Made by a program: the position numbers and the translations under genes. From contig JAHPZH010000004.1 in NCBI GenBank assembly GCA_019058315.1, positions 352,001 to 416,000 on the forward strand: a DNA stretch of 64,000 nt, given 5' to 3'. Shown one piece after another: positions 43,417 to 63,449 of the stretch; position 1 is the stretch's first letter, and every line of letters starts with the position of its first letter. The notes beneath the pieces were generated by a model that worked only from the letters and a program-made list of their open reading frames with translations, had not been told where the DNA came from and searched no databases. The DNA is from Candidatus Helarchaeota archaeon (GTDB lineage Archaea > Asgardarchaeota > Lokiarchaeia > Helarchaeales > RDOG01).

Positions 43417-46400
43417 TTATACCCCCTGAACCTTAATTTTTTTACAATATTTGATTACAGCATTGACTCCATGATCATAAACAATTTGATCAGATTTTGA
43501 TAAAGGGTTGTTAGATAAATCCAATTTCTTTAAACTTGAAAGGTCTTCTAATCCACTAATATTTTTAATCTGATTTCCATAAACTATAAATTGCTGTAAA
43601 TGTTTTAGATGTCCTAAATTTTCAATAATTTTAATATCATTTTTTCCGAGATTCAATCTTTTTAATTTAAACAACTTATGCAGACCACTAATTTTTGAAA
43701 TTCTATTATTGTGTAAATTTAGCACTTCTAATTTGGTTAGATCATCAAGTTCCTCTATTTTGGAGATTTGATTTAGAGACAAATCTAAAACACGTAAATA
43801 TGAGAAGTTAGAAATTATTTTTGGAATTTTTTCAAGAAAAAGGTTATTTAAATTAAGTCTTACTACATGACCATCATAATCCATCTCATAATCATATGAT
43901 CCTATACGATATTTTGTGATTAATTCCTGAATTATCTCTCCATCTTTAATCTCTTCTATTTCAGGTTTTTCTCCAGGTTTTATTATCTGATTTATTATTT
44001 CAAATTGGTACTGAATTTGTTGTGTTTCTATCCTTCTTTCAAATGAAGCAAAAACACCATATTCGGAATCATTTAATAGATAATTAGCTAAGTTTTTCGC
44101 TTCAAAATCAATAATGTCGGACAAAGGCATTATTTGATGGTCATAGAAGAAAGGAAATGAAAATAATCTATTAAATAATCCATCCAATTTATCATTTTTC
44201 CCTCCCACTATATAAAATACTCTCTCATTCCATTCACTATTTTTCCAATTTATATCAGTTTCGTCGAATTTGCTAGCTCTAAACATTAATAATAAATAAA
44301 AACGAAGTGGAACTCTATAAGCATCCATAAAATCATATATAAGCTCTCTATTCTCTGGACTTTCTATAGGTTTAGATTTTCCCTCTCCATAAGAACGATA
44401 ATGGAGTATTCCTCTTCCTGGCCAATATTTTGAAAATCCAACTTTACCCAAAGCTTCACTAGCTCTTTTTTCTAGATTGAAAAATAAATAATTTAATGCC
44501 ACATTATACCTATCTAGTGCTCGAGCACCATAAAATATAGCTGTAGTGGCATGCCGTTGATATTGACGACTTGAAAATCTATCCTCTGGGGGTAGTGCTT
44601 TTTTAACACCATCCCATGCTTCATCATCGCAATTCGCTTCTATAGATCTTAATTTTCCTATAATCTCATCAAATTTTTTCTCATTATCACCTTGAGATTC
44701 CTTTAAAATTTTCTCTTTAATATAATAAGCTGTTATAGCATAATCTAACTGTCTTAATACAAGCAAATTGACCTTTTTTGGAAAAATTTTATGTTTTTTT
44801 AATTGTAGAGTATAAAAGATACTTGATTTAATCTTACTAATTACCATTTCCCAAGCTATTGGGAATAATTTTCCTTCTTCTCTCGCTTTTTGAATTGCTT
44901 GACGTAATTTATCAGCTTCAGCAGCTTTTTGTTTTTGTATTTCTATTTCATAATCAGAAAGTTTTTCAATTTCAATGTTTAATTTACTAATGAATTCTAG
45001 GTCTTCGTCGAAAATTTCTCCACCCGCAAGTCTTAATTTATACACTTCAAACGTATAATACGAACGACCATCAACTTTGATAATATGTAAATTAAATTGT
45101 TCCCCTCTTTCTAATGACAATTTCTTTCCTGGTCCAAGATGAATTAATTGCTTAGTACCGTAAATAGTAACCGAGTAAATTCCTCTATATTTACTTATTC
45201 TATCGGACCCGATGTTTGTTCCTTTATAGAACACAAATCCTCCTTTTTTATACCTAATTAGAACCTCACAGTTATTGCAAATATACATTTTATTCTTTGT
45301 AGGCATTCTTAGAGTCCCTGATTTACGACAATTGGGACATATGATTTTATCTTGTTCATCCTTGTTGAATTTATTAAAAGGATGATAATTTCGGGATTTA
45401 TATTTGAAATGAATACAAGCAGGTTCATTTTTTAACCGTCTCTTTTGTTTTTTTCGACAACAAGATTTGGGACCATCTTCCCTAACTTTTATGGAATTTG
45501 CGATAAAAAATTCACATTCTTGGCAAAAAATCCGTTCTTTCTCCTCAGGTTTCATTCCTGCTAAATAATAACGCTTAGACGGACGCCCCTTTATTATCAG
45601 GTCAAACGAAAATTCCAAATCTTTACTAATTTTGTCCAATTGATACCAAATAGCAGATTTCTTAATATTATTATATTTACGCTTTAATATATGATGTAAT
45701 TCTTTTATTGTCGCCCCTTTTTTTCCACTATTTCCCAATTCTTCTTTTATAGAATCCAGATATATCGAACTTCCATGTTTCTTCCTACGTGTGCGTTTAG
45801 AAACATGAAAATGAATTGTGTCTTTATCATCATTATATCGTTCAATTATATATCTAATCCGCCAAAATATTGGTTTATTTTCTTTTAAATTTAATATTTT
45901 CTTCTCGTCTATATCATGATAGTTTTTTCTCCCTAGGGCAATAGAATGAAATAATCTAGCAGCCTTAATAACATACGTTGAACAGAAAAACCATATTCCA
46001 GTTTTTCTACAAACTTCTACATCTCCCCCAAAATACTTATTTTTTTTAATAAATTTTTTATTTTTTAGTTTATTTTGAGAATATTTTTGGATTATTATTT
46101 TATATTTATTATTCTCTCGTTCAATATACTCTTGTGAAATTACACCCTTATATTGTGAAATTATTTCTTCCGCATGAGATTCACCAATTATTTCACCAAT
46201 TCTAAGTATGATCTCCTTACTCTTGGGTTTTTCATTTTGGTTAAAAAAGTCTAAAATTTGCATAAACGCTTTTCTATTTAGCTGAGTCTCTACAAGGCCC
46301 TCCCCTAGATAAGTTAGAGCATATTTTTTCTTAACATCCCGAATTAAATTCCTATTTTTTTTCATCAGTTCTTTATTCTTTACTGGAACTAGATCGGGCA

Positions 46401-47835
46401 TCAAGGATTTTAAAATCAGATCAAGGGGTTTTACATCGATACAGAAAGTTATTGATAATATGAAAGGCACTCGAAACATATATTCTACAAATTTATCGGG
46501 ATGCAAGACTTTCTCAAGATGCTCCATAATCTGAGCTTTTGAACGCTGACGTAAAAATAAATATTCAAGAATAATTTTTGGCAAATCTTTAATCGTTATT
46601 TGGCTATTTATTGCTTCTAGTGTATAACCCCGGAAAATTGTTTTATTTTTATCTAGAAATTTGACACTCTTTTTAAAGTCCTGATAATCTCTATAATACA
46701 TTAAATGAACTATTGTACCTAATAATTCTCTACATCTACCAATTATTTGTTCAAGCTCAATTTTTGAATATTTTTCAGGATCAGCTATAATTATTTCTTC
46801 AATATCCTTTACATCTACACCAGCTTCTAAAATGGGGCTACAACTCAAAATTTTGATTTTACCTGAATTAAAACTATCGAAAATTTGCTTTTTTTCATAA
46901 GTCGCAAGCCCTGCATGAATAAATCCGAAGATTTCAATATTATAACCTTTAAATTTTTCTTTGAGATGGTCTGAAATTTCCTGAGCTTTTTCTCTTGATT
47001 TGATAAAAATTAATAATTTAGCTTTTATTACTTCTCTATATTTTCTTAAGAAATTCCTGACTAATCCTGTAATTTCATCAAGTGGGGGATCACTTGCTTT
47101 TTGATGTAATTCAAATTTGAATTTGCGATTAGATGGATAGTAAAGTAATTCTGAACCAAATCTTTCCGACCAATATTCAGCAGATTCACGGTCAAATGTT
47201 CCAGTTAGAAAGCAAAAAAGAGGTCTGCTTTTCTTATTATCGAAATATTCAAATTTTAACTTATAAATCATGGTCTCTAATTTCATTCCCCTAGAAGGGT
47301 CTCTAATAGTATGGATTTCATCTACTATTATTGCTCCAAAAATGTCTTTTCTGTCAAACAACTCATATTTTTGAATTCGAAATAAAAAAGCTCGAAACGC
47401 TTCATAAGTACAAAGGAGAACTACTCGCCGATCTCTTTCTTTAGGTTTTTTCTTACTTTTACGGTCTTGTTGCCCTTTCTTCATTTTTGGTCTTAATTCT
47501 AATAGGTCTGGTCTTGATTCACCGACTAGTTTTAATATTTTAACCTTACTCCCAAAAAACCACCTTAACTCCTTTTCCTTTTGATATACCAACGTAGTAG
47601 TTGGTTCGAGTATAACACCTATTTTTCCTTCATCTGTTCCGACATAAAGGCCAATAAAAGCAACCCAAGTCTTTCCAGAATTTGTTGGGGCACAAAGAAA
47701 TATACTTATACCAGACAATAATTTATAAATCGCCAATTTTTGACTTTCAAATAAATCTGCAGTTGTAACACCATTTCTACGTGCGAATTGATCAAGTAGA
47801 TAAAGTAATTCGCTTCTATTTTTTAATAAAGCTAT
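43417..47835 (-). CDS. cas1: SF2 (Ski2/Hel308-like) helicase - HTH - Cys clusters - Cas1 - LRR fusion
   Basis: Helicase: Q motif LFESQ, APTNSGKT, DEIH, TGT, IFIKSR, HAGL, LEAGVD, QIIGR. Cas1: 'LRSIEA', 'DRYNVALNYLF', 'GILH', 'LIYDFMDAYR'. C-terminal SDS22 LRRs. Confidence 0.8.
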   Translation of the reverse strand: MALLKNRSELLYLLDQFARRNGVTTADLFESQKLAIYKLLSGISIFLCAPTNSGKTWVAFIGLYVGTDEGKIGVILEPTTTLVYQKEKELRWFFGSKVKILKLVGESRPDLLELRPKMKKGQQDRKSKKKPKERDRRVVLLCTYEAFRAFLFRIQKYELFDRKDIFGAIIVDEIHTIRDPSRGMKLETMIYKLKFEYFDNKKSRPLFCFLTGTFDRESAEYWSERFGSELLYYPSNRKFKFELHQKASDPPLDEITGLVRNFLRKYREVIKAKLLIFIKSREKAQEISDHLKEKFKGYNIEIFGFIHAGLATYEKKQIFDSFNSGKIKILSCSPILEAGVDVKDIEEIIIADPEKYSKIELEQIIGRCRELLGTIVHLMYYRDYQDFKKSVKFLDKNKTIFRGYTLEAINSQITIKDLPKIILEYLFLRQRSKAQIMEHLEKVLHPDKFVEYMFRVPFILSITFCIDVKPLDLILKSLMPDLVPVKNKELMKKNRNLIRDVKKKYALTYLGEGLVETQLNRKAFMQILDFFNQNEKPKSKEIILRIGEIIGESHAEEIISQYKGVISQEYIERENNKYKIIIQKYSQNKLKNKKFIKKNKYFGGDVEVCRKTGIWFFCSTYVIKAARLFHSIALGRKNYHDIDEKKILNLKENKPIFWRIRYIIERYNDDKDTIHFHVSKRTRRKKHGSSIYLDSIKEELGNSGKKGATIKELHHILKRKYNNIKKSAIWYQLDKISKDLEFSFDLIIKGRPSKRYYLAGMKPEEKERIFCQECEFFIANSIKVREDGPKSCCRKKQKRRLKNEPACIHFKYKSRNYHPFNKFNKDEQDKIICPNCRKSGTLRMPTKNKMYICNNCEVLIRYKKGGFVFYKGTNIGSDRISKYRGIYSVTIYGTKQLIHLGPGKKLSLERGEQFNLHIIKVDGRSYYTFEVYKLRLAGGEIFDEDLEFISKLNIEIEKLSDYEIEIQKQKAAEADKLRQAIQKAREEGKLFPIAWEMVISKIKSSIFYTLQLKKHKIFPKKVNLLVLRQLDYAITAYYIKEKILKESQGDNEKKFDEIIGKLRSIEANCDDEAWDGVKKALPPEDRFSSRQYQRHATTAIFYGARALDRYNVALNYLFFNLEKRASEALGKVGFSKYWPGRGILHYRSYGEGKSKPIESPENRELIYDFMDAYRVPLRFYLLLMFRASKFDETDINWKNSEWNERVFYIVGGKNDKLDGLFNRLFSFPFFYDHQIMPLSDIIDFEAKNLANYLLNDSEYGVFASFERRIETQQIQYQFEIINQIIKPGEKPEIEEIKDGEIIQELITKYRIGSYDYEMDYDGHVVRLNLNNLFLEKIPKIISNFSYLRVLDLSLNQISKIEELDDLTKLEVLNLHNNRISKISGLHKLFKLKRLNLGKNDIKIIENLGHLKHLQQFIVYGNQIKNISGLEDLSSLKKLDLSNNPLSKSDQIVYDHGVNAVIKYCKKIKVQGV

Positions 47836-50590: not shown

Positions 50591-50615
50591 TTAAATTATC
50601 TTTGAAAGATATAAA

Positions 50616-50830
50616 TTCAAAAAAATGATGCCTTTTTCTAAACACTTTTCAAAAAATCGATATTATAAAAAATTGATCAAAAAGGAGTTTATTGATCAAA
50701 AAAAATTCTATGCAGTTTTCTAAACGCTTTTTAAAAAATTGTATTTTACTAGGTGATTTTTGATCAAAAAAATTTCTATGCAGTCTTCTAAACGATTTTC
50801 GAAAAATTGAACTTTTCAGGATCAAAAAAA
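50616..50830. repeat. degenerate ~68-bp tandem repeat (about 3 units) with TTGATCAA palindromes
   Basis: ttgatcaaaaaaa.ttctatgcagt.ttctaaacg.tttt..aaaaattg at 50692 and 50760; a more degenerate unit near 50616. Confidence 0.7.
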
Positions 50831-51685
50831 ATTTTCATTTTTACTGAAATCAAAGAGATCCCTTAACTATAAGAATTGAGATAAATTATAAAAATTTGTA
50901 ATTAAATAACCTGATTTAAGTGGAAAATAGAATAAAAAAATTAGTTATTGAATAAGTATAAGTTTCTTAATTTCATTTACTAAATTTAAAATTTTTAATT
51001 TATTACAATGTTATGTTGTTTAACGCTGAAAAAAATGAGAGTTTCTACAAAAATATAGTTAAGTTAATCTTTGGATTTGAAAGAAGAATTTTAAAGAGTT
51101 ATAATTGAATCGCTATTAATTCTAAACATTAAATTGGAAAATATTTTTTAAATTTAAAGATGGAATAATGTTTTTCGATATTTATGTTCATAAGAAAGCT
51201 TCTTAATGATATTAAATTTAAAAACAATAAATAACTCTTAATTATTTTGTAAACTAAGTATATTTTTCTAATTTTATAATTTAAGCTAAAAAATTTTCAA
51301 ACTTCTAAATTCATTTAAATTAAATTTTAATTTTTATATTAGAAAGCTTATACAGCTAAAATTTTAATCAAAATTAAATAAACTCTTTTTAAATTAATTG
51401 GCTTATTAAATTTGTGATTGCTTAATAATAATTCAAATTAAAGTATATACCAGAATACTTAATTATAATTTAAGAAAATTTATATAAAATTTTCGTTTAA
51501 TTTGAATAAAGTCGATAATAATCAGCCTTGATATCCTCATTCGATGAAAAAATTTATTTAATAAATTTTTCTTTTTTTACTAAGAAATTTTTAAATTAAT
51601 GATAAAAACTTCTTTTTAATAAAATTTTAAAGATATTAAAATTGTTATCTTTTCTATTTTCTGCCCAAATTCCTACCCGAACCGT

Positions 51686-51731
51686 CTAAATAACCAGTTT
51701 TAGGGGTGTTTAAATATAGAATTAACAGTTA
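51686..51731 (+). promoter_or_regulatory. putative promoter/operator of the RAMP operon
   Basis: TTTAAATA box plus TAACaGTTA palindrome; 41/46 identical to 54052-54097 and 60361-60406. Confidence 0.7.
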
Positions 51732-51773: not shown

Positions 51774-52619
51774 TTGAAAACAATAAATGTGGTTTTTTTA
51801 TGTGAATCAATAACAACAAGACAAGATCTCTTTGTCACCTTTGGAAATAGTCATGGAATCTTTGATCAAAAAAAGTTATCGGGGTATACTAAACTTGGTC
51901 GCATACCTGGTAAGACCTTGAAAGGTTGGTTAAGACATGGAATGGAAAAACTATTGTTGAAAATGGGAATATCTATTTGTCATCCTCTACCTGCAAATAC
52001 GATAACAAACGAGAGGAATAAAAAATATTATAAAGAAGATATGGCAATCGGTTACCATCCACGAGGAGAATGTGAAAAACAAGGCGGATGTCCGATATAT
52101 AATATGTTTGGGGATTTAGATAAACCAAGTAATTTAATTGTTCCCAGTGTTTATTTTTATCCTTCAGTTGGAGGCGGAACAATGGCAGCTAATATTAATA
52201 AAATTTTTGGATCTGTCGGAAGAGGAAGAATTGAAATTGACCATGAAAGTCCTAGAAAACGATCAAATAGTTTTCAAACATATATGAGCAACGAAACAAT
52301 TGTAGGAACTTATATTGAGGCACCTTGGAATCTTGTAATTCGAGAAGATAACGAACTTCATGAAATTTTAATTTTAAAAACTTTGGAATATCTCTTCGAA
52401 AAAAACACAAATTCCGATATGACATTTATGGTAGGCGGACAACGAACTGCTGGATGTGGAAGAGCTGTTGCGGTTAAATTAAATGATAGCGGAAATTATT
52501 TGATAAAAAATAGAAATTCCCTTGGTATAAAGCAAGAAAAAGTGGAGTTAATTAATGGAAAATTCGATGATTTCATGAAGGAGTTAAAAAAGAAATTTCC
52601 TATAAAGGCGGTAAAATAA
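51774..52619 (+). CDS. cas7: Cas7-like RAMP (HRAMP/Asgard-RAMP type)
   Basis: RIPGKTLKGWLRH, Cys/His insert ICHP..YHPRGEC....CPIYNMFG, G-rich loop VGGQRTAGCG. Confidence 0.85.
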   Translation: MKTINVVFLCESITTRQDLFVTFGNSHGIFDQKKLSGYTKLGRIPGKTLKGWLRHGMEKLLLKMGISICHPLPANTITNERNKKYYKEDMAIGYHPRGECEKQGGCPIYNMFGDLDKPSNLIVPSVYFYPSVGGGTMAANINKIFGSVGRGRIEIDHESPRKRSNSFQTYMSNETIVGTYIEAPWNLVIREDNELHEILILKTLEYLFEKNTNSDMTFMVGGQRTAGCGRAVAVKLNDSGNYLIKNRNSLGIKQEKVELINGKFDDFMKELKKKFPIKAVK

Positions 52620-52620
52620 A

Positions 52621-53328
52621 TTGGAATACAAAGTTTTAAGATTGCTCTTTGGATTCTTAAGCGAATATGTGGGAAATCCGCTCTATATCTCTGGAAATGC
52701 AATTCGCCATGCTTTTCATAAAAAAATTAATACATCGGTTGGATGTTTTACAGAATTAAGACGATTGGATGCAATAAATAGCTATGAAGCTTTTATTAAA
52801 ATCAGAATAGAGAAGCCTTTTTTAATACCTCACACTCAATCTTTTTTTTCTAAGATTGAAAGGAAGAAAAAACATCTAATTTATTTCACACCTACTTCAA
52901 TAACCTTCGATATTATTAATCCTCCTGAGAATCTTATTAATTTTATTAAAAATTTGAATATAATTCAGTTGGGTGGTTTAAGAAATGAAGGTTTTGGAGC
53001 TGTTGAACTTCTTGATCATCTACTTATTGATTTAAAAAAAATTGAATATCCTGATATTGGGACACATGTAACTCTTATATCACCAATATTATATGTTCCA
53101 AAATTTCTTGAAACTTATCAGTGTCGTCAGGAATATGTAATTTTTTGGAATAATAGTAAAAAAAATCGGATAAAAATAATCTCACCTGGACAATTTTTCA
53201 GAATAAAAAAGAATAAAAACATAAAAAAAATTGCAGAAAAAGGGATCTTACGCAAGGTTTTATTTGGTCAGTTCGGGTTTGGTGAATTCTTTGTTAATAA
53301 TTGGCCAAAGGAGGAGGAAAATGAATAA
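52621..53328 (+). CDS. cas5: Cas5-group RAMP with two G-rich loops
   Basis: YISGNAIRHA, QLGGLRNEGFG, LISP, C-terminal GQFGFGEF; 1-nt gap after cas7. Confidence 0.7.
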   Translation: MEYKVLRLLFGFLSEYVGNPLYISGNAIRHAFHKKINTSVGCFTELRRLDAINSYEAFIKIRIEKPFLIPHTQSFFSKIERKKKHLIYFTPTSITFDIINPPENLINFIKNLNIIQLGGLRNEGFGAVELLDHLLIDLKKIEYPDIGTHVTLISPILYVPKFLETYQCRQEYVIFWNNSKKNRIKIISPGQFFRIKKNKNIKKIAEKGILRKVLFGQFGFGEFFVNNWPKEEENE

Positions 53329-53998
53329 TATACTATCAATTCTACGACATGATCTTCATAAATTGAGGATAAAAGGATTTAAACCCCATAAAGAAGCCTT
53401 AGTTGAGCCTGAAATGAAAAAAGCAGATTCTATAGCCAGTTGGTTTTCAAGAAATGGCAATAAAATAGAGTTCGATATTAATAAAAGACTGTATTTGAGG
53501 GATTCTTATTTGATTAAAATTGAAAAAAATAAAATCAGAAATCAAATCATTAAAAAAAGAGAAGAAATTTTTAAAATTTTTAATGAAAAAAATCCTACAA
53601 AATTACATTCTCAGATTTTAAACTCAAAGGTTCTAAATAAATTTTCAGAGGCACGAATTTGCCCCCATAGTAGCTATAAATATCATTTGCTTTTAACTTG
53701 CAGTATTTATTGGAATTTGAAAAATAGTAATTGTTGGCAAAAATTATATTTAGCAGAAAATGCCGAAATTGATAGTCCGTTTCAGATTATCTACAAAGAT
53801 GATCAACGTGAATGGGCACTTACTCCTAACGGAGGAATGTCCCGCGTTTTCCCACAGTTTTCTAGAACTTGGTTGAGACGTCAAACATTTAGTTTAGGAG
53901 GTGATGATCTCATCCTCGATGGACTCCTATCCCAAATCGGGAGTTGGAGTGCTGCACTTGCAACAATCGAGGATTGGAGAGAGCTTCAAAAACCATAA
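53321..53998 (+). CDS. third core gene of the HRAMP-like module (uncharacterised)
   Basis: ATG at 53321 after GGAGGAGG, overlapping the cas5 stop. 'YKYHLLL' and 'LDGLLSQIGSWSAAL..IED' resemble, from recall, the haloarchaeal HRAMP-associated protein. Confidence 0.65.
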   Translation: MNNILSILRHDLHKLRIKGFKPHKEALVEPEMKKADSIASWFSRNGNKIEFDINKRLYLRDSYLIKIEKNKIRNQIIKKREEIFKIFNEKNPTKLHSQILNSKVLNKFSEARICPHSSYKYHLLLTCSIYWNLKNSNCWQKLYLAENAEIDSPFQIIYKDDQREWALTPNGGMSRVFPQFSRTWLRRQTFSLGGDDLILDGLLSQIGSWSAALATIEDWRELQKP

Positions 53999-54036
53999 AT
54001 ATAGCAAGGGAAAAATTAGCTTGACTCGGTGCCTAA

Positions 54037-54217
54037 CAATGCATAGTACCACTAAATAACCAGTTTTCGGGGAATTTAACTATAAAATTAACAGTTAATC
54101 AAAGCTCTAAATAGAATAATCCTAAAAACAAAGTTACGTCTCGGTCTCAGCAGTGTAGACCGAAAAGAGGTAAAATCTGGAAATAGAAATTATCTCAATG
54201 TATAGTACAACTAAATA
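54037..54217 (+). repeat. 22-nt direct repeat pair (54037-54058, 54196-54217)
   Basis: CAATGCATAGTACCACTAAATA vs CAATGTATAGTACAACTAAATA (20/22); also at 60346 and 60505. Confidence 0.8.
54052..54106 (+). promoter_or_regulatory. second copy of the RAMP promoter, with no ORF downstream
   Basis: 41/46 identical to 51686-51731; 55/55 identical to 60361-60415. Confidence 0.7.
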
Positions 54218-54290
54218 TAAAGAACCATCTTTATGCATCATATCCAGAAGCGGATTCACTAAGTTTCTCAGTTCACTTTAATAACCTTAA
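54103..54290 (+). ncRNA. candidate structured RAMP-associated ncRNA (ends approximate)
   Basis: Hairpins at 54141-63, 54167-96 (GAAA loop), 54217-34 and 54242-55; differences from the 60.4-kb copy mostly preserve pairing. Confidence 0.55.
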
Positions 54291-54309
54291 TAATTAATCT
54301 TTCATAATA

Positions 54310-55399
54310 CTAATCATATTCCCTAACTAATTCAAAAGTTTGTTTTAAGAACTTAGAAGTTCCTTTTTTTTGCATTAAATCTAGAAGTGGGTTTATGGGA
54401 AGAAAAATTATTTGGTTTTTAATAAAATTATCAAGAATTTTTAAAAATTTTAAAGATCCTGAGACACTAGTTGCCAATGAGAGGATTGCTGAAAATTTAT
54501 TTAAATCTGTATATCTTATGCCTATTATCGTGTTTATCCACCACCCAAATTGCTCTGACAATTGATGTTTTGCGATTAAAAGGGCTTTTTCAACATTTCT
54601 TTCCCGTTCAAAAATATCAATTACTTGTTCTTTAGAGATAGTGTAGAATTTTTCTAATGAACCATTTTTTAAATCTAAACCTAAAATCGTTTGTAATTTT
54701 ATATCTTGATCGAAAATGAACATTATTGTCCTAACTTGATATCCATAAATGAAATTAAAAGCTCTATTATAACTTAGTATTGAAGGGGGATTTAATTTTT
54801 TTAAATCAAAATTAAAAAATGTTTTTCCCCAACGTCTAAATAACACAATTTTACCATCAGAAGTCCATAAATCATCTGATTTGGTAATAAATTCTGTAAA
54901 TTTGATAAGGAAATTTTTAAAATTATATTTAGACATTATATCTTTCAAATAATTAAATATTTCAAATCTTGTTATAAAAGCGGTATTTACTTTCAGATAT
55001 TTTTCATTATAGAATACCTGATATTTTTTATGAAATTGTTTAGCGAGTTCTGCCATAAGATCCTGCATTGAATGTTTCTTCTTTTTGATTTTTTCAAATC
55101 TATGCTCAATTTTTTTATTATCCAGAAATGTAAAAACCAACTTATAAGGTGTTGTAAGAATTACAAATGATGCTATTTTCTTTTCATTTATCAAGGAAAA
55201 AACAACATTTTGAGGAGGTAATAATTTCGTAATTACGTTTCTAAAGGTTAAGGCATCGAAATTATCATTATCTGTAATAAATTTTTTAAGAAAATCTAAA
55301 AATAAGGGAGGATTATAAACTTGAATTCTTTCTTCTTTATACATTTTAGCTAAAAAATTCCAAAGAGCTGCAATATAGTCTAAAAATTCATATTTTAAT
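54310..55399 (-). pseudogene. 5'-truncated paralogue of the 60620-62200 gene
   Basis: Collinear with 60620-61709; homology ends abruptly at 55399, so the N-terminal ~164 codons are missing. Confidence 0.8.
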
Positions 55400-55438
55400 A
55401 ATTAGTCAAAAATAAATAGTTTTGCATCCTTTAAAATT

Positions 55439-59822: not shown

Positions 59823-60221
59823 CAATAATAAACTCTGCTTCTTAATCTTTTTTTTTTCGAAAAATATCTATTTAGTTATCAATACACTTTTTGAAAAATT
59901 GAACTTTACTTGTTTTAAAAAAATTTTCATTTTTACTAAAAACCTAGAATATAAAATAATAAGATAAATTTTTAATATTTTTAATTAAACAACTTATTGA
60001 CAGCTTTTTTCTAAAATAAAATAAACTCTTTCTAAATCGATTGGTTTATTTAATTTGTGATTGTTAAAGATTAATTTTATTTAGAAAATATATTTGATTT
60101 TTTACTTAAAATTTAAGATAGAATAATTATAGCTACAGTTAAGTTAAACAAAAGTCTGTAAAATTTATTAAGTTTATCTTTATATTTTTTTTTTACTCAG
60201 AATTTAGAACTTTTTAGTATT

Positions 60222-60307
60222 ATTATTGGTGGGTCCTTTCTCAGATTGAGAGTTGGAGCGCTGTACTTGCAACGATCGAGGATTGGAGTGATCTTCAAGA
60301 AACTTAA
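60222..60307 (+). pseudogene. 3' remnant of the third RAMP-module gene
   Basis: VLSQIESWSAVLATIEDWSDLQET* vs LLSQIGSWSAALATIEDWRELQKP*. Confidence 0.85.
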
Positions 60308-60411
60308 ATATTGCATAGGAAAAATTTGCCTGACATAGTGCCTGACAATGCATAGTTCCACTAAATAACCAGTTTTCGGGGAATTTAACTATAAAATTAA
60401 CAGTTAATCAA

Positions 60412-60600
60412 AGCTTTAGATTGCTAAATATCAGAAACAAAGGTCTGTCCCAGTCTCAGCAGTGTAGATCGAAAAGAGATAAAATCTAGAAATAGAAATT
60501 ATCTCAATGTATAGTACAACTAAAGAAAGAGAGCTATCTTTATGTATCATATCCAGCAGAGGATTTGCCAAGTTTATTCAGTTCATTCTCATACTCTTAA
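60412..60600 (+). ncRNA. second copy of the candidate RAMP-associated ncRNA
   Basis: Promoter block 60361-60415 is intact; hairpins at 60476-60505, 60526-43 and 60551-64. Confidence 0.5.
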
Positions 60601-60619
60601 TAACTAATCTCTTATAATT

Positions 60620-62200
60620 CTAATCATATTCCCTAATTAATTCAAAAACTTCTTTAAAAAACTTAGAAGTTCCTTTTTTTTTCATTAAATCGAGAAGTGG
60701 ATTTATAGGAAGAAATATCATTTGATTTTTGATGAAATTATCAAGGATTTTTAAGAACTTCAGCGATCCTGGGACACTAGTTGCCAACGATAGGATCGCT
60801 GAAAATTTATTCAAATCTGTATATCTTACACCGATTACTGTGTTTATCCACAACCCAAATTGCTCCGACAATTGATGTTTAGCAATTACAAGAGCTTTTT
60901 TGACATCTTTTTCCCTTTTAAAAATATCTTTTACTTTTTCCATAGAGATTATATAGAATTTCTCTAATGTACCATTTTTTAAATCTAATCCTAAAATTGT
61001 TTGTAATTTTACATCTTGATCAAAAATAAACATTATTGTCCTAGCTCGATATCCATATATGAAATTAAAACCTCGATTATAACTTAATACTGAAGGAGGA
61101 TTTAATTTATTTAAATCAAAATCAAAAAAGGATTTTCCCCAACGCCTAAACAAAACAATTTTACCATCAGAAGTCCATAAATCATCTGATTTTATAATAA
61201 ATTCTGTAATTTTAATAAGGAAATTCTTAAAACTATATTTCAATATTATATCTTTCAAATAATTGAATATTTCAAATCTTATTACAAAAGCAGTATTTAC
61301 TTTCAGATATTTTTCATTATAGAATACACGATATTTTTTATGAAGTTGTTTAGCAAGTTCTGCCATGAGCTCCTGAAATAAATGTTTCTTATTTTTGATT
61401 TTTTTAAATCTCTGCTCAATTCTTTTATTATCTAAAAAGGTAAAAACGAACTTATAGGGTGTTGTTAGTATAGCAAATGCTGCTGTTTTCTTTTCATTTA
61501 TCAAGGAAAAAACAACATTTTGAGGAGGTAATAATTTCGTAATTACGTTTCTAAAGGTTAAGGCATCGAAATTATCATTATCTGTAATAAATTTTTTAAG
61601 AAAATCTAAAAATAAGGGAGGATTATAAACTTGAATTCTTTCTTCTTTATACATTTTAGCTAAAAAATTCCAAAGAGCTGCAATATAGTCTAAAAATTCA
61701 TATTTTAATGAATCATGTAATTCTCTAAAATCTTCAAGGAATTTTAAATCAATAACAATAATGAAATTGAGGTTAAAATTAGAATTGAGCCCGATATTTA
61801 AATTTTGAACGTAATTATTTATTTTTTCAAAGGAATTATCTTTAATTAATCCAAGTATTTCTTCAGAATTTTGAATTTCAAATTTGAAAAAGTCGAAATA
61901 ATTCCCATTCTCTTCGTATTGCGCAGCTGACCAAATTACTTGATTATGAGAATCATTTAAAATTAAAATTAAAGAATCCCCATTTTCCGTAAATAATTTT
62001 GGAAAAGATTCTGAAAAGAAATTAAAAAAAGTATAACAATCTACTTCAATAGGAATAAATGGAAAAGTAAGCTTTGTTTCTTGTTCTGATATTTTCTCTC
62101 CTATGGCGATTTTTTTATTAAATTTTATAATTTTTTTCCAATCTTCAACTAATTCTTCAAACCAACTTATAATCTCATGCAAAATATACTCATGCTCCAA
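60620..62200 (-). CDS. hypothetical protein (full-length copy)
   Basis: 526-aa ORF overlapping the stop of the DUF362 gene. Confidence 0.7.
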   Translation of the reverse strand: MEHEYILHEIISWFEELVEDWKKIIKFNKKIAIGEKISEQETKLTFPFIPIEVDCYTFFNFFSESFPKLFTENGDSLILILNDSHNQVIWSAAQYEENGNYFDFFKFEIQNSEEILGLIKDNSFEKINNYVQNLNIGLNSNFNLNFIIVIDLKFLEDFRELHDSLKYEFLDYIAALWNFLAKMYKEERIQVYNPPLFLDFLKKFITDNDNFDALTFRNVITKLLPPQNVVFSLINEKKTAAFAILTTPYKFVFTFLDNKRIEQRFKKIKNKKHLFQELMAELAKQLHKKYRVFYNEKYLKVNTAFVIRFEIFNYLKDIILKYSFKNFLIKITEFIIKSDDLWTSDGKIVLFRRWGKSFFDFDLNKLNPPSVLSYNRGFNFIYGYRARTIMFIFDQDVKLQTILGLDLKNGTLEKFYIISMEKVKDIFKREKDVKKALVIAKHQLSEQFGLWINTVIGVRYTDLNKFSAILSLATSVPGSLKFLKILDNFIKNQMIFLPINPLLDLMKKKGTSKFFKEVFELIREYD

Positions 62201-63449
62201 TTTGTGGGTGTCTAGGGTCTAATAGTTTACGCCCTTTTGTCCATCTCTTTATTATTTCATTAATAAATTCAAAGGCTGGGATTTTATCTTTGAAATTTAT
62301 TGCGATTTTTTCAAAAATATTCAAATTGATAGGAGGACAACCAGAAATTTCTTGTATTCTATAAGCTCGGCGAATTCTTTTATTGGTATTAAATCTATAA
62401 TTTTTAGTGGAAATAATAGCACAATCGCCAAATATAATGATATTTCTCTTATATGATGAAACTTCAGGATTTTCTCCTAATAAACAAGTAAATCCTCCAT
62501 ATCCCTTTAACTCTTTTCCGAGGAACGTATCCATTAAGTCTGAAAATATTCTAAATGAAGCCAAACAACCCGAACAACATTTGCCTTGATGTATACTTAA
62601 TAATTCACTATCAGAAGGTAAGAGTTGAGCCTTTTTAAAATTAAAATAATTTGGGTCATCTCCCACTAATGAGATTTTCTTAGGATCTCCATTACCTAAA
62701 TTTAAATCTTGAGCAAGCTTAATATGCTTAATTTGAGAAGGATCAAATCCCATAATTGACGCTGCAATTGAATCAATAGCAATGGGATCAGTACCGGCTA
62801 AATTAAATTTGGTTTCTATCCCTGAAAGGTTAAATGGACCTTGTCCTTCCCCTCCAATAAATGAATCCATTATGATCAAATCGGGTTTAATTGCTTTCAA
62901 TATATCAGTAAGTCCTTCATGAATTCCGGATTTATAAAGTAAGAAATATTGCTCATCTGGCAATAATCCATGAAGATTTTTAATTGAAAGAGCAACATCG
63001 GATAAAAAATCAGTTCGTATAGTGGGAATTGAAATAAAAACATCTGAACTCAAAACACTTTTTGGAAGATGAACTTCTGTAAGGACTTTAGATTCTGATA
63101 CTTTTATGGGCTCGAAATGTTCCTTCTCTAAATTTATTAATGTCACTCCAATGCTATTGAGATATTCATCTAATCCTGTAAATTTAAATAAATTTTTTGA
63201 TGAAATTCCTCCAAAGGGATTATCGCCAACAATTACTTTTTTAGCACCAACATCAAAACACATCTTTGCTATTGTTCCAATTATTAAAGGATCTGTGCTT
63301 GCAGGAATACCTATAGGGGTACTAAGATCCGGTTTTAAAAAAACTGTTTGTCCTTTTCTAACAAAATTCTGTATTCCCCCTAAAAGTTCTATAGCTTTTC
63401 TAGTTGCATTAATTGTATTTTCTCCCTTAGCAATTGCAACTATAGACAA
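62190..63449 (-). CDS. DUF362 Fe-S protein
   Basis: AIELLGG....V..G..V.LKP, GEGQGP, GTDPIAID, CSGC, GDCA, SGCPP. Confidence 0.85.
   Translation of the reverse strand: MSIVAIAKGENTINATRKAIELLGGIQNFVRKGQTVFLKPDLSTPIGIPASTDPLIIGTIAKMCFDVGAKKVIVGDNPFGGISSKNLFKFTGLDEYLNSIGVTLINLEKEHFEPIKVSESKVLTEVHLPKSVLSSDVFISIPTIRTDFLSDVALSIKNLHGLLPDEQYFLLYKSGIHEGLTDILKAIKPDLIIMDSFIGGEGQGPFNLSGIETKFNLAGTDPIAIDSIAASIMGFDPSQIKHIKLAQDLNLGNGDPKKISLVGDDPNYFNFKKAQLLPSDSELLSIHQGKCCSGCLASFRIFSDLMDTFLGKELKGYGGFTCLLGENPEVSSYKRNIIIFGDCAIISTKNYRFNTNKRIRRAYRIQEISGCPPINLNIFEKIAINFKDKIPAFEFINEIIKRWTKGRKLLDPRHPQIGA

Follow-up and report, generated by a model that had tools for sequence, protein, structure and literature searches.

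What is the gene-less DNA that follows an array-less Cas7/Cas5 operon in an Asgard archaeon? The window analyzed here, 64,000 nt of a Candidatus Helarchaeota archaeon (contig JAHPZH010000004.1, positions 352,001 to 416,000, forward strand), contains a cas7-cas5-orf3 operon related to HRAMP (haloarchaeal RAMP) and ARAMP (Asgard RAMP), two array-less CRISPR derivatives for which the available reviews (PMC8730458, PMC12669027) name no RNA or conserved non-coding part. A first-pass annotation had placed a candidate structured RNA of four hairpins at 54052-54290, downstream of orf3, and had taken it to be the RNA bound by the RAMP complex. These bounds have to be redrawn: by comparison among copies, the conserved unit is ~54038-54217, and it consists of a 21-nt motif (R), a promoter box, two hairpins (H1 and H2), and a terminal motif (R'). 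It is very probably a real, constrained, + strand element at the end of an HRAMP-type cassette and no chance fold. That it functions as a cis-acting module of promoter, hairpin, and motif, which travels with the cassette and then outlives it, has in our judgment an even chance. The region is laid out as follows.

54038..54058, + strand: motif R, the first of two 21-nt motif copies (AATGYATAGTAC.ACTAAATA); runs into the start of the promoter box
54052..54097, + strand: promoter box copy, TATA-like at 54075-54087; identical at 46/46 positions to 60361-60406 (copy 2)
54098..54141, + strand: variable segment from promoter box to H1, 68% identical between copies 1 and 2 and the least conserved part; missing from copy 3
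54142..54162, + strand: H1, a weak 6-bp stem with loop CAGCAGTGT; loop invariant in three copies, stem with an A.C mismatch in copies 2 and 3
54167..54196, + strand: H2, a hairpin with a 7-bp outer stem, internal loop, 4-bp inner stem, and GAAA loop
54197..54217, + strand: R', terminal motif, ACAACTAAATA, at which the conserved unit ends; its counterpart in relatives is ATTGYATGGTATAGATAATAAA
54218..54309, no strand assigned: H3/H4 region, outside the conserved element; 78% identity between copies 1 and 2, not common to copy 3 or relatives

The annotation was right that a promoter copy follows the operon, the 46-nt box at 54052-54097 being 89% identical to the box upstream of the cas7-like gene:

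51686..51731, + strand: promoter box upstream of the cas7-like gene, 46 nt, with TATA-like TTTAAATATA at 51707-51716; a three-copy direct repeat

Because the box holds an archaeal TATA-like element, a + strand transcript start can fairly be predicted near 54105-54112. The stretch is also free of open reading frames (ORFs), as had been stated (no + strand ORF of at least 50 aa inside 54060-54309), and gene-less DNA extends from the orf3 stop to a convergent gene at 54310-55344. On the + strand, 54100-54290 folds at -32.6 kcal/mol (z = -2.3, 2/200 shuffles as good); on the - strand, z = -1.6. Of the four annotated hairpins, H2 stands, since it is present in the centroid folds of both window copies, H1 is weak, and H3 and H4 fall outside the conserved unit. 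An Rfam scan of the window returned one tRNA at gathering score, elsewhere in the window, and left the element unmatched; at E up to 10 in 53900-54400 there was one chance-level snoRNA match (16 bits vs. a 60-bit threshold). A scan of 53900-54450 for bacterial-type terminators, a type of scan not made for archaea, found none. Genome-wide pattern search of the 5.8-Mb genome gave five occurrences of the 21-nt motif (R twice, R' three times), none of them antisense. The promoter-box pattern recovered only the three known exact copies, and hits with one or two mismatches were no commoner than in the reversed control, so the box is no genome-wide regulon motif here.

Evidence of constraint comes from two further copies in the same genome. 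Positions 53925-55400 match 60234-61710, a segmental duplication of at least 1.5 kb that spans ~70 nt of the orf3 3' end together with the entire convergent gene. In copy 2, cas7, cas5, and all but a remnant of orf3 have been deleted (tblastn matches orf3 residues 232-254 only), and its parts are as follows.

60234..60526, + strand: copy 2, whole (orf3 3' remnant, R, box, H1, H2, R')
60234-60308, + strand: orf3 3' remnant
60347-60367, + strand: motif R
60361-60406, + strand: promoter box
60451-60471, + strand: H1
60476-60505, + strand: H2
60506-60526, + strand: R'

The first-pass annotation had used this diverged copy as an internal comparison. It is not an independent locus, being part of the duplication, but it is informative since identity between copies 1 and 2 is uneven:

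Promoter box: 100% (0 differences/46)
R (54038-54058): 95%
H1-H2-R' (54142-54217): 93.4% (5 differences/76)
orf3 remnant: 82%
Stop codon to R: 77%
Segment after the TATA box: 68%
H3/H4 region: 78%

The flanks carry 56 differences in 249 nt, in a neutral-looking range of 68-82%. Such unevenness inside one duplication makes the box and H1-H2-R' look constrained, and H3/H4 not; the 78% of H3/H4 is like that of the flanks, the region is missing from copy 3, and its two hairpins do not survive as parts of the element. The differences that had been described in H2 are real: two G-to-A changes in copy 2 turn G-U into A-U pairs. The H1 stem is weakened in copy 2, as claimed, by an A.C mismatch that recurs in copy 3, and in H1 the loop alone is invariant. 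Copy 3, a partial copy on contig 11, has an orf3 C-terminal remnant, a differing TATA-like sequence at the right distance, and then H1-H2-R', and its similarity stops directly after R'. Its H2 keeps the outer stem and has a rebuilt inner stem (ACUAA/UUAGU instead of UCUG/UAGA). In the window's genome, H2 alone is supported as a putative paired structure, by this one rebuilt stem. An empty-site search by way of the flavoprotein gene beside the contig-11 copy found orthologues without the element in five relatives; no precise insertion site can be defined there because synteny is not conserved.

Homologous loci carry the same unit across the window's order, Helarchaeota. A sample of 400 genomes from the phylum gave clear orf3 homologues (E 1e-37 or better) in this order alone, in 7/7 genomes, usually in several copies per genome; many are C-terminal pieces only or contain stops, and many lie at contig ends. 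Cas7 and Cas5 homologues were found, among the order's genomes, in G000 and G125 (Hel_GB_A) only, plus fragments in G124. The architecture 3' of orf3 in relatives is a T-rich stretch, 5' stem arms (one or two stems), R, box, 3' arms, and R', after which homology among them ends. Their motif R is ATTGCAT..GATAATAAG, and their box, conserved downstream of orf3 across the order, is CCAGTTT...TTTAAATA / AATAAGCCAGTTT...TTTAAATA. Short forms (~96 nt) have the outer stem, loop, and R' only; long forms carry the second stem, R, and box inside the loop.

The stems of these copies covary. In ten Hel_GB_A copies with 23 stem pairs, 96.1% are paired on the + strand, with eight wobble-preserving one-side changes (G-U/A-U or G-U/G-C), and the same columns read on the - strand are 86.1% paired, with one such change. 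Searches with a covariance model (R1) derived from Hel_GB_A copies recover 25 copies in that genome, 4 in G124, and 5 in G123, but none in the window's genome, G128, G126 (Hel_GB_B), or G127, lineages that were compared by eye and with BLAST. When 21 copies of three genomes are aligned with the model, 88.6% of cells are paired vs. 68.4% in shuffles (0/500 reach it), 20/23 pairs have changes on both sides, doubly changed cells number 100 vs. 34 expected, and sliding partners by 1-3 columns leaves 33-52% paired, figures that flatter the structure, as the alignment was fitted to the model's structure and the copies are interrelated. Between copies, stem arms differ yet stay complementary (GTCCAAGG/CCTTGGAC, CTCAAAAG/CTTTTGAG, GTTCGAGG/CTTCGAAC). 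Compensatory change and strand asymmetry, the generic marks of a structured RNA, are both seen in the aligned Hel_GB_A-type copies. Genomes (82-94% complete) in which the search found orf3 pseudogenes alone, without an intact cas7 or cas5, still have the element, and it is still paired. R and R' are more alike within loci than across loci (permutation p ~6e-4), with the excess mostly between major lineages, a likeness that may be compatible with a self-targeting guide or with a lineage-specific DNA-binding protein.

One locus of a sister genus (L013, G128:C75) has a GC hairpin followed by GTGATGA...CTGA, which is C/D-box-like, downstream of an orf3 remnant, and two tRNA-like genes lie directly after this tail on the same strand. 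A C/D-box reading of the tail was rejected: the window's copies are without the GTGATGA...CTGA of the G128 copy.

How the copies end is as consistent as how they begin is variable. In Hel_GB_A the 5' junctions vary: one copy lacks an orf3 remnant altogether, others have remnants that differ in length, and in one the orf3 C-terminus is fused to cas7 residues 1-101, yet all of these copies finish in the same R'. Copies occur in 5'-truncated, internally deleted (both ends kept), and solo form, with the 3' end fixed. A same-strand ORF of at least 60 aa starts no more than 30 nt past the element end in 19/30 copies, and two more are cut by contig ends. Three downstream genes were compared with element-free relatives: a thiolase gene (orthologues in G123 and G000 93% and 91% identical), a glycerate-kinase-like gene, and an acetyltransferase-like gene led by a Shine-Dalgarno (SD) sequence. 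Where the element is missing, a native TATA region lies 25-35 nt before the start. In all three orthologue comparisons the element has taken the place of this whole region in the genome that bears it, and it stops 2-6 nt short of the ATG or the native GGTGA; the junction falls about where the native transcript would start. Intact genes that have lost their native promoter must be transcribed from the element, which would make the box a working promoter in the relatives; by this indirect argument it would read rightward through the hairpin arm and R'.

A counterpart exists in Haloarchaea. All-against-all comparison of 68 haloarchaeal loci gave a sharply bounded 2.7-kb three-gene block in 40-60 loci, with unrelated flanks. 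Its tail extends ~85 nt past the last stop; the last ~30 nt are nearly invariant (AATAAAGAAATCGTATT..CAACAACTG.TA), and then similarity drops abruptly. For the shorter-spacing form of the motif, Natrinema gelatinilyticum BND6 had 10 hits and Halobacterium salinarum DSM 3754 had 4, with 0 for the reversed control, and the one-base-longer form gave one further hit in N. gelatinilyticum; among these copies are full cassettes, 5'-truncated forms, and solo motifs. The likeness of the motif's end (ACAAC..T.ATA) to R' of the window is suggestive only. Non-coding tail, fixed 3' boundary, and 5'-side decay are common to both phyla, and RNA structure is not among the common features. The structure and covariation that the first-pass annotation had expected at homologous loci are thus seen in Helarchaeota, where the stems covary, but not in the haloarchaeal tails, which have no common fold.

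At four haloarchaeal loci (L196, L197, L198, L214), the 3' end of a TnpB-like gene (zinc-ribbon QQCHVCG) lies ~100-200 nt upstream of the cas7-like gene; such ends beside the HRAMP core could reflect an insertion hotspot or an association of IS200/IS605 type. In Halopiger djelfimassiliensis an inverted solo terminal motif (L260) stands 3 kb upstream of the full cassette of L191 and could be the other end of a larger element. Terminal inverted repeats as a general feature in Haloarchaea were rejected, since the Halopiger case stands alone and the arrangement is inconsistent in other genomes.

The genes bear out the assignment of the module as an HRAMP/ARAMP relative. The + strand operon cas7-cas5-orf3 is as annotated (51774-53998) and comprises three overlapping or abutting ORFs (51774-52619, 52621-53328, 53231-53998).

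51774..52619, + strand: Cas7-like RAMP gene, 281 aa; Pfam RAMPs PF03787, E 5.7e-7
52621..53328, + strand: Cas5-like gene, 235 aa; BLASTP 5e-13 to the last gene of the haloarchaeal HRAMP core
53321..53998, + strand: orf3, third core protein, ~225 aa from M31; motifs RHDLHK and SLKYHxLLTC conserved in the homologue alignment
43417..47835, - strand: helicase-Cas1-LRR (leucine-rich repeat) fusion gene, 1472 aa; Pfam DEAD, Helicase_C, Cas_Cas1 (3.1e-5), LRR

All three proteins match the haloarchaeal three-gene core, the Cas7-like protein with a BLASTP E of 4e-18 to the haloarchaeal HRAMP Cas7-like protein. For the Cas5-like protein, Pfam and NCBIfam searches gave no match; the label, given without a profile match, derives from the glycine-rich loops that it has in common with the haloarchaeal core's last protein and from the published HRAMP description. 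Homology of orf3 starts at M31 (position 53321), the ORF itself starting at 53231, and homologues occur in 7/7 genomes of the window's order, in 59 metagenome loci, and in more than 60 Haloarchaea, the last with 24-28% identity over the full length. The gene order is permuted, cas7-orf3-cas5 in Haloarchaea vs. cas7-cas5-orf3 in the window. The RHDLHK motif of orf3 is HD-like, its GGDD-like motif reads GGEH or GGD in relatives, and its best fold match, to Csm1/Cas10, is weak (E 0.28; model pLDDT 62). A "mini Cas10" reading of orf3 has this weak fold match only, and profile searches returned nothing. The Cas1-domain fusion gene lies ~4 kb upstream of the RAMP operon on the opposite strand, and no CRISPR-like tandem array is present in the 64-kb window. 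Judged by sequence likeness, the Cas7-like gene and the Cas5-like gene that mark HRAMP/ARAMP modules are both found here, as is, within the window, the lack of an array; for the associated nuclease of such modules (HNH, PD-(D/E)xK, or HD) and the distinct Cas1 of ARAMP, the possible candidates are orf3, with its HD-like motif and weak Cas10/Csm1 fold match, and the Cas1 domain of the fusion ~4 kb away.

Several observations concern the surroundings. The Cas1 domain near this array-less RAMP module has unusual fusion partners, a superfamily 2 (SF2) helicase and leucine-rich repeats. The convergent 344-aa gene (54310-55344, - strand) is a 5'-truncated paralogue of a 526-aa gene (60620-62200, - strand), and neither has a family match. 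Their identity, 85% at the 3' end, climbs to 98-100% at the start codon of the shorter gene and past it, a pattern suggestive of gene conversion or of a younger duplication boundary. A DUF362-family gene (E 3.9e-34; 62190-63449, - strand) overlaps the start of the 526-aa paralogue. AT-rich repeats at 50600-51520, upstream of the operon, recur at 59849-60161, upstream of copy 2, with 70-75% identity; they comprise a unit of ~70-80 nt, TTTTCTAAACGCTTTTTAAAAAATTG, in 3-4 copies at 50619-50856, plus a 149-nt block at 51370-51518. Their presence upstream of both copies implies that the duplicated region exceeds 1.5 kb and that the cas genes were deleted from copy 2.

Starting from the observed conservation, covariation, strand bias, multi-copy state, fixed 3' end, and gene-start junctions, we propose that 54038-54217 would be the non-coding 3' terminal module of an HRAMP-type cassette, with R' marking the cassette's 3' boundary. 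The box would start a rightward transcript carrying the hairpin and R', and where the module lies directly before host genes, as in relatives, it would be their promoter and leader. Cassette and tail together would be a repeat family whose copies arise by spreading or duplication and later decay, beginning at the 5' side, with the result that the tail outlives the genes. As no gene follows the element in the window, the product there would be a short structured RNA of ~110 nt or more.

Several points weigh against this proposal. Promoter activity, transcript ends, and any interaction with RAMP proteins are all inferred from sequence, and among public sequencing runs no RNA run was listed as containing the stretch. 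The absence of a gene after the element means that a promoter/leader role cannot apply to the window copy itself. No transposase or other mobility gene was identified in the cassettes, so spreading is read from the copy pattern alone. In Haloarchaea, RNAalifold on 21 tails gave no consensus pairs and no common fold, and solo tails are without a consistent downstream gene. The covariation figures, as noted, favor the structure. Moreover, the internal promoter of most relatives comes after the 5' stem arms, so that the stems enclose it; the covarying structure can then form only in operon read-through RNA or in single-stranded DNA, not in RNA started at the box, and this need is unaccounted for by a promoter/leader explanation. 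The small-RNA picture can hold in the window's lineage, because there H1 and H2 lie wholly downstream of the box.

The hairpin and R' might instead belong to a dedicated partner RNA, as a handle/guide or scaffold for the Cas7/Cas5/orf3 complex that would replace crRNA (CRISPR RNA), as the first-pass annotation had it; we regard this as possible but tentative. In one possible variant R' would be a fixed guide that matches R by its own promoter and autoregulates; in another, the RNA would read past R' into the flank, like the omega RNA of TnpB, and guide the complex to an insertion site. Consistent with a partner RNA, the element is tied to the cassette's last gene in two phyla despite the permuted order (orf3 in Helarchaeota, cas5 in Haloarchaea), its promoter box is in common with the window's cas operon, R and R' are confined to these loci genome-wide, and the strand-specific wobble changes favor the + strand. 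By analogy, a hairpin with 21-33 conserved single-stranded nucleotides would resemble a CRISPR repeat stem and 5' handle, and the tail, as in TnpB elements, marks the 3' boundary of an element that is multi-copy and carries an outward promoter. The greater likeness of R and R' within loci (p ~6e-4) would also fit, but since its excess is mostly between major lineages, a lineage-specific DNA-binding protein would explain it too. Further, the element is paired and conserved in genomes with orf3 pseudogenes only and no cas7 or cas5 found, and solo copies exist too; RNA started at the box would, in most relatives, carry the 3' stem arms only; the sequence past R' is usually a host gene start, which argues for a leader rather than a guide; and the haloarchaeal tails are without a common fold. 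The data fit a cassette-end promoter/leader at least as well as a guide RNA, and the two readings overlap, as an RNA started at the box and bearing the hairpin and R' could be both leader and RAMP ligand.

It is rather improbable that the stems and terminal motif act as a DNA-level cis site, that is, a recognized mobile-element end or recombination site whose transcript would be incidental, such as the single-strand hairpin end of an IS200/IS605 or rolling-circle type. The sharp, fixed 3' boundary with variable 5' extent, the solo ends and the internally deleted copy with both ends, the frequent breaking of contigs at copies, haloarchaeal tails conserved in sequence and not in fold, and the TnpB 3' ends directly upstream of some haloarchaeal cassettes would all suit such a site, and the G-U changes would not speak against it, since G-T wobble is tolerated in single-stranded DNA hairpins, as established for IS608 ends and attC sites. 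The conserved block, however, includes no transposase, Rep, or integrase, neither a terminal inverted repeat nor a target duplication was seen, and the promoter box and gene-start junctions would be left unexplained; stems that differ between subfamilies yet stay complementary point to selection on structure rather than to a fixed protein-binding site. Least probable of all, and hardly to be expected, is ordinary intergenic DNA, in which the likeness would come from recent segmental duplication and the hairpins from chance in AT-rich sequence. Copy 2 does belong to the duplication of at least 1.5 kb, H3/H4 and the stretch that follows the TATA box change as neutral DNA would, and the fold z-score of -2.3 is modest, but the uneven segment identity, the compensated H2 of copy 3, and the order-wide architecture and covariation already contradict this explanation, and Haloarchaea have an analogous tail.

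The cassette-end module can be set beside several known systems. HRAMP and ARAMP themselves were reportedly described by Makarova et al. (2019, FEMS Microbiol Lett; 2020, CRISPR J). The module here is like them in its diverged Cas7-like and Cas5-like proteins, its lack of an array, and the nearby Cas1 homologue, as in many ARAMPs; it differs in the conserved terminal non-coding module, present in both lineages, and in being a multi-copy cassette that decays from the 5' side. The kind of system is already known, whereas the non-coding tail, the multi-copy 5' decay, and the replacement of host promoters are undescribed in the reviews (PMC8730458, PMC12669027), although the primary papers may mention them; a search of the accessible literature on HRAMP turned up no account of an RNA. 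Omega RNA of TnpB/IscB offers a likeness in the non-coding RNA region that runs from 3' of the effector gene to the element boundary, in outward transcription, and in multiple copies of which decayed ones keep the 3' end; however, the effector here would be a multi-subunit RAMP complex and not a RuvC nuclease, the flank is usually a host gene start, and neither TnpA nor TnpB, nor a RuvC effector with IS200/IS605 ends, is found within the cassette.

Class 1 CRISPR repeats form a stem-loop with an 8-nt 5' handle bound by Cas5. Similarly, a hairpin here is followed by a conserved single-stranded motif (AATGYAT...), and two direct copies of ~21 nt lie beside cas7/cas5 homologues; but there are two copies only, ~160 nt apart, fewer than the three or more repeats of an array, with a conserved promoter-bearing segment between them, and the module is without variable spacers, Cas6, or adjacent adaptation genes. 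Outward promoters of insertion sequences (IS) and mobile promoter elements are alike in that the promoter at the element end reads into host genes and replaces theirs; they differ in that here no transposase was found in the cassette, junctions lie within a few bases of the start codon or SD sequence, and a covarying stem encloses the promoter. CreTA, a set of toxin-antitoxin RNA pairs that resemble CRISPR and protect haloarchaeal cas genes (PMC8730458), likewise comprises small non-coding genes with degenerate repeat-like motifs by cas5/cas7, the repeat-like motif matching promoter DNA, although the present locus showed neither a toxin-like small RNA bearing a rare-codon ORF nor a second, divergent RNA gene.

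Few CRISPR derivatives lack a known RNA, mechanism, or phenotype, and HRAMP and ARAMP are two of them. To these the present analysis adds a tail, found in both Asgard archaea and Haloarchaea, that has a sharp 3' boundary, is multi-copy, outlives the genes, and appears to capture host promoters, and that is a concrete candidate for the missing RNA or for a cis element. The question is testable, since cultivable strains carry the cassette (Halobacterium salinarum DSM 3754, a Haloferax strain, and Natrinema gelatinilyticum). It is conceivable, though unlikely, that HRAMP/ARAMP cassettes are mobile RNA-guided class 1 units whose tail encodes the missing RNA partner. If so, the tail would consist of a hairpin and a fixed handle at the 3' boundary of the cassette that either is directed at the motif of its own promoter or, in the manner of TnpB omega RNA, continues into flanking DNA, and the junctions at host transcription starts and the 5'-truncated copies would be footprints of guided mobility. 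If the tail is a portable promoter only, it would still be new, and a CRISPR-derived module would be a selfish or domesticated mobile unit that rewires host expression.

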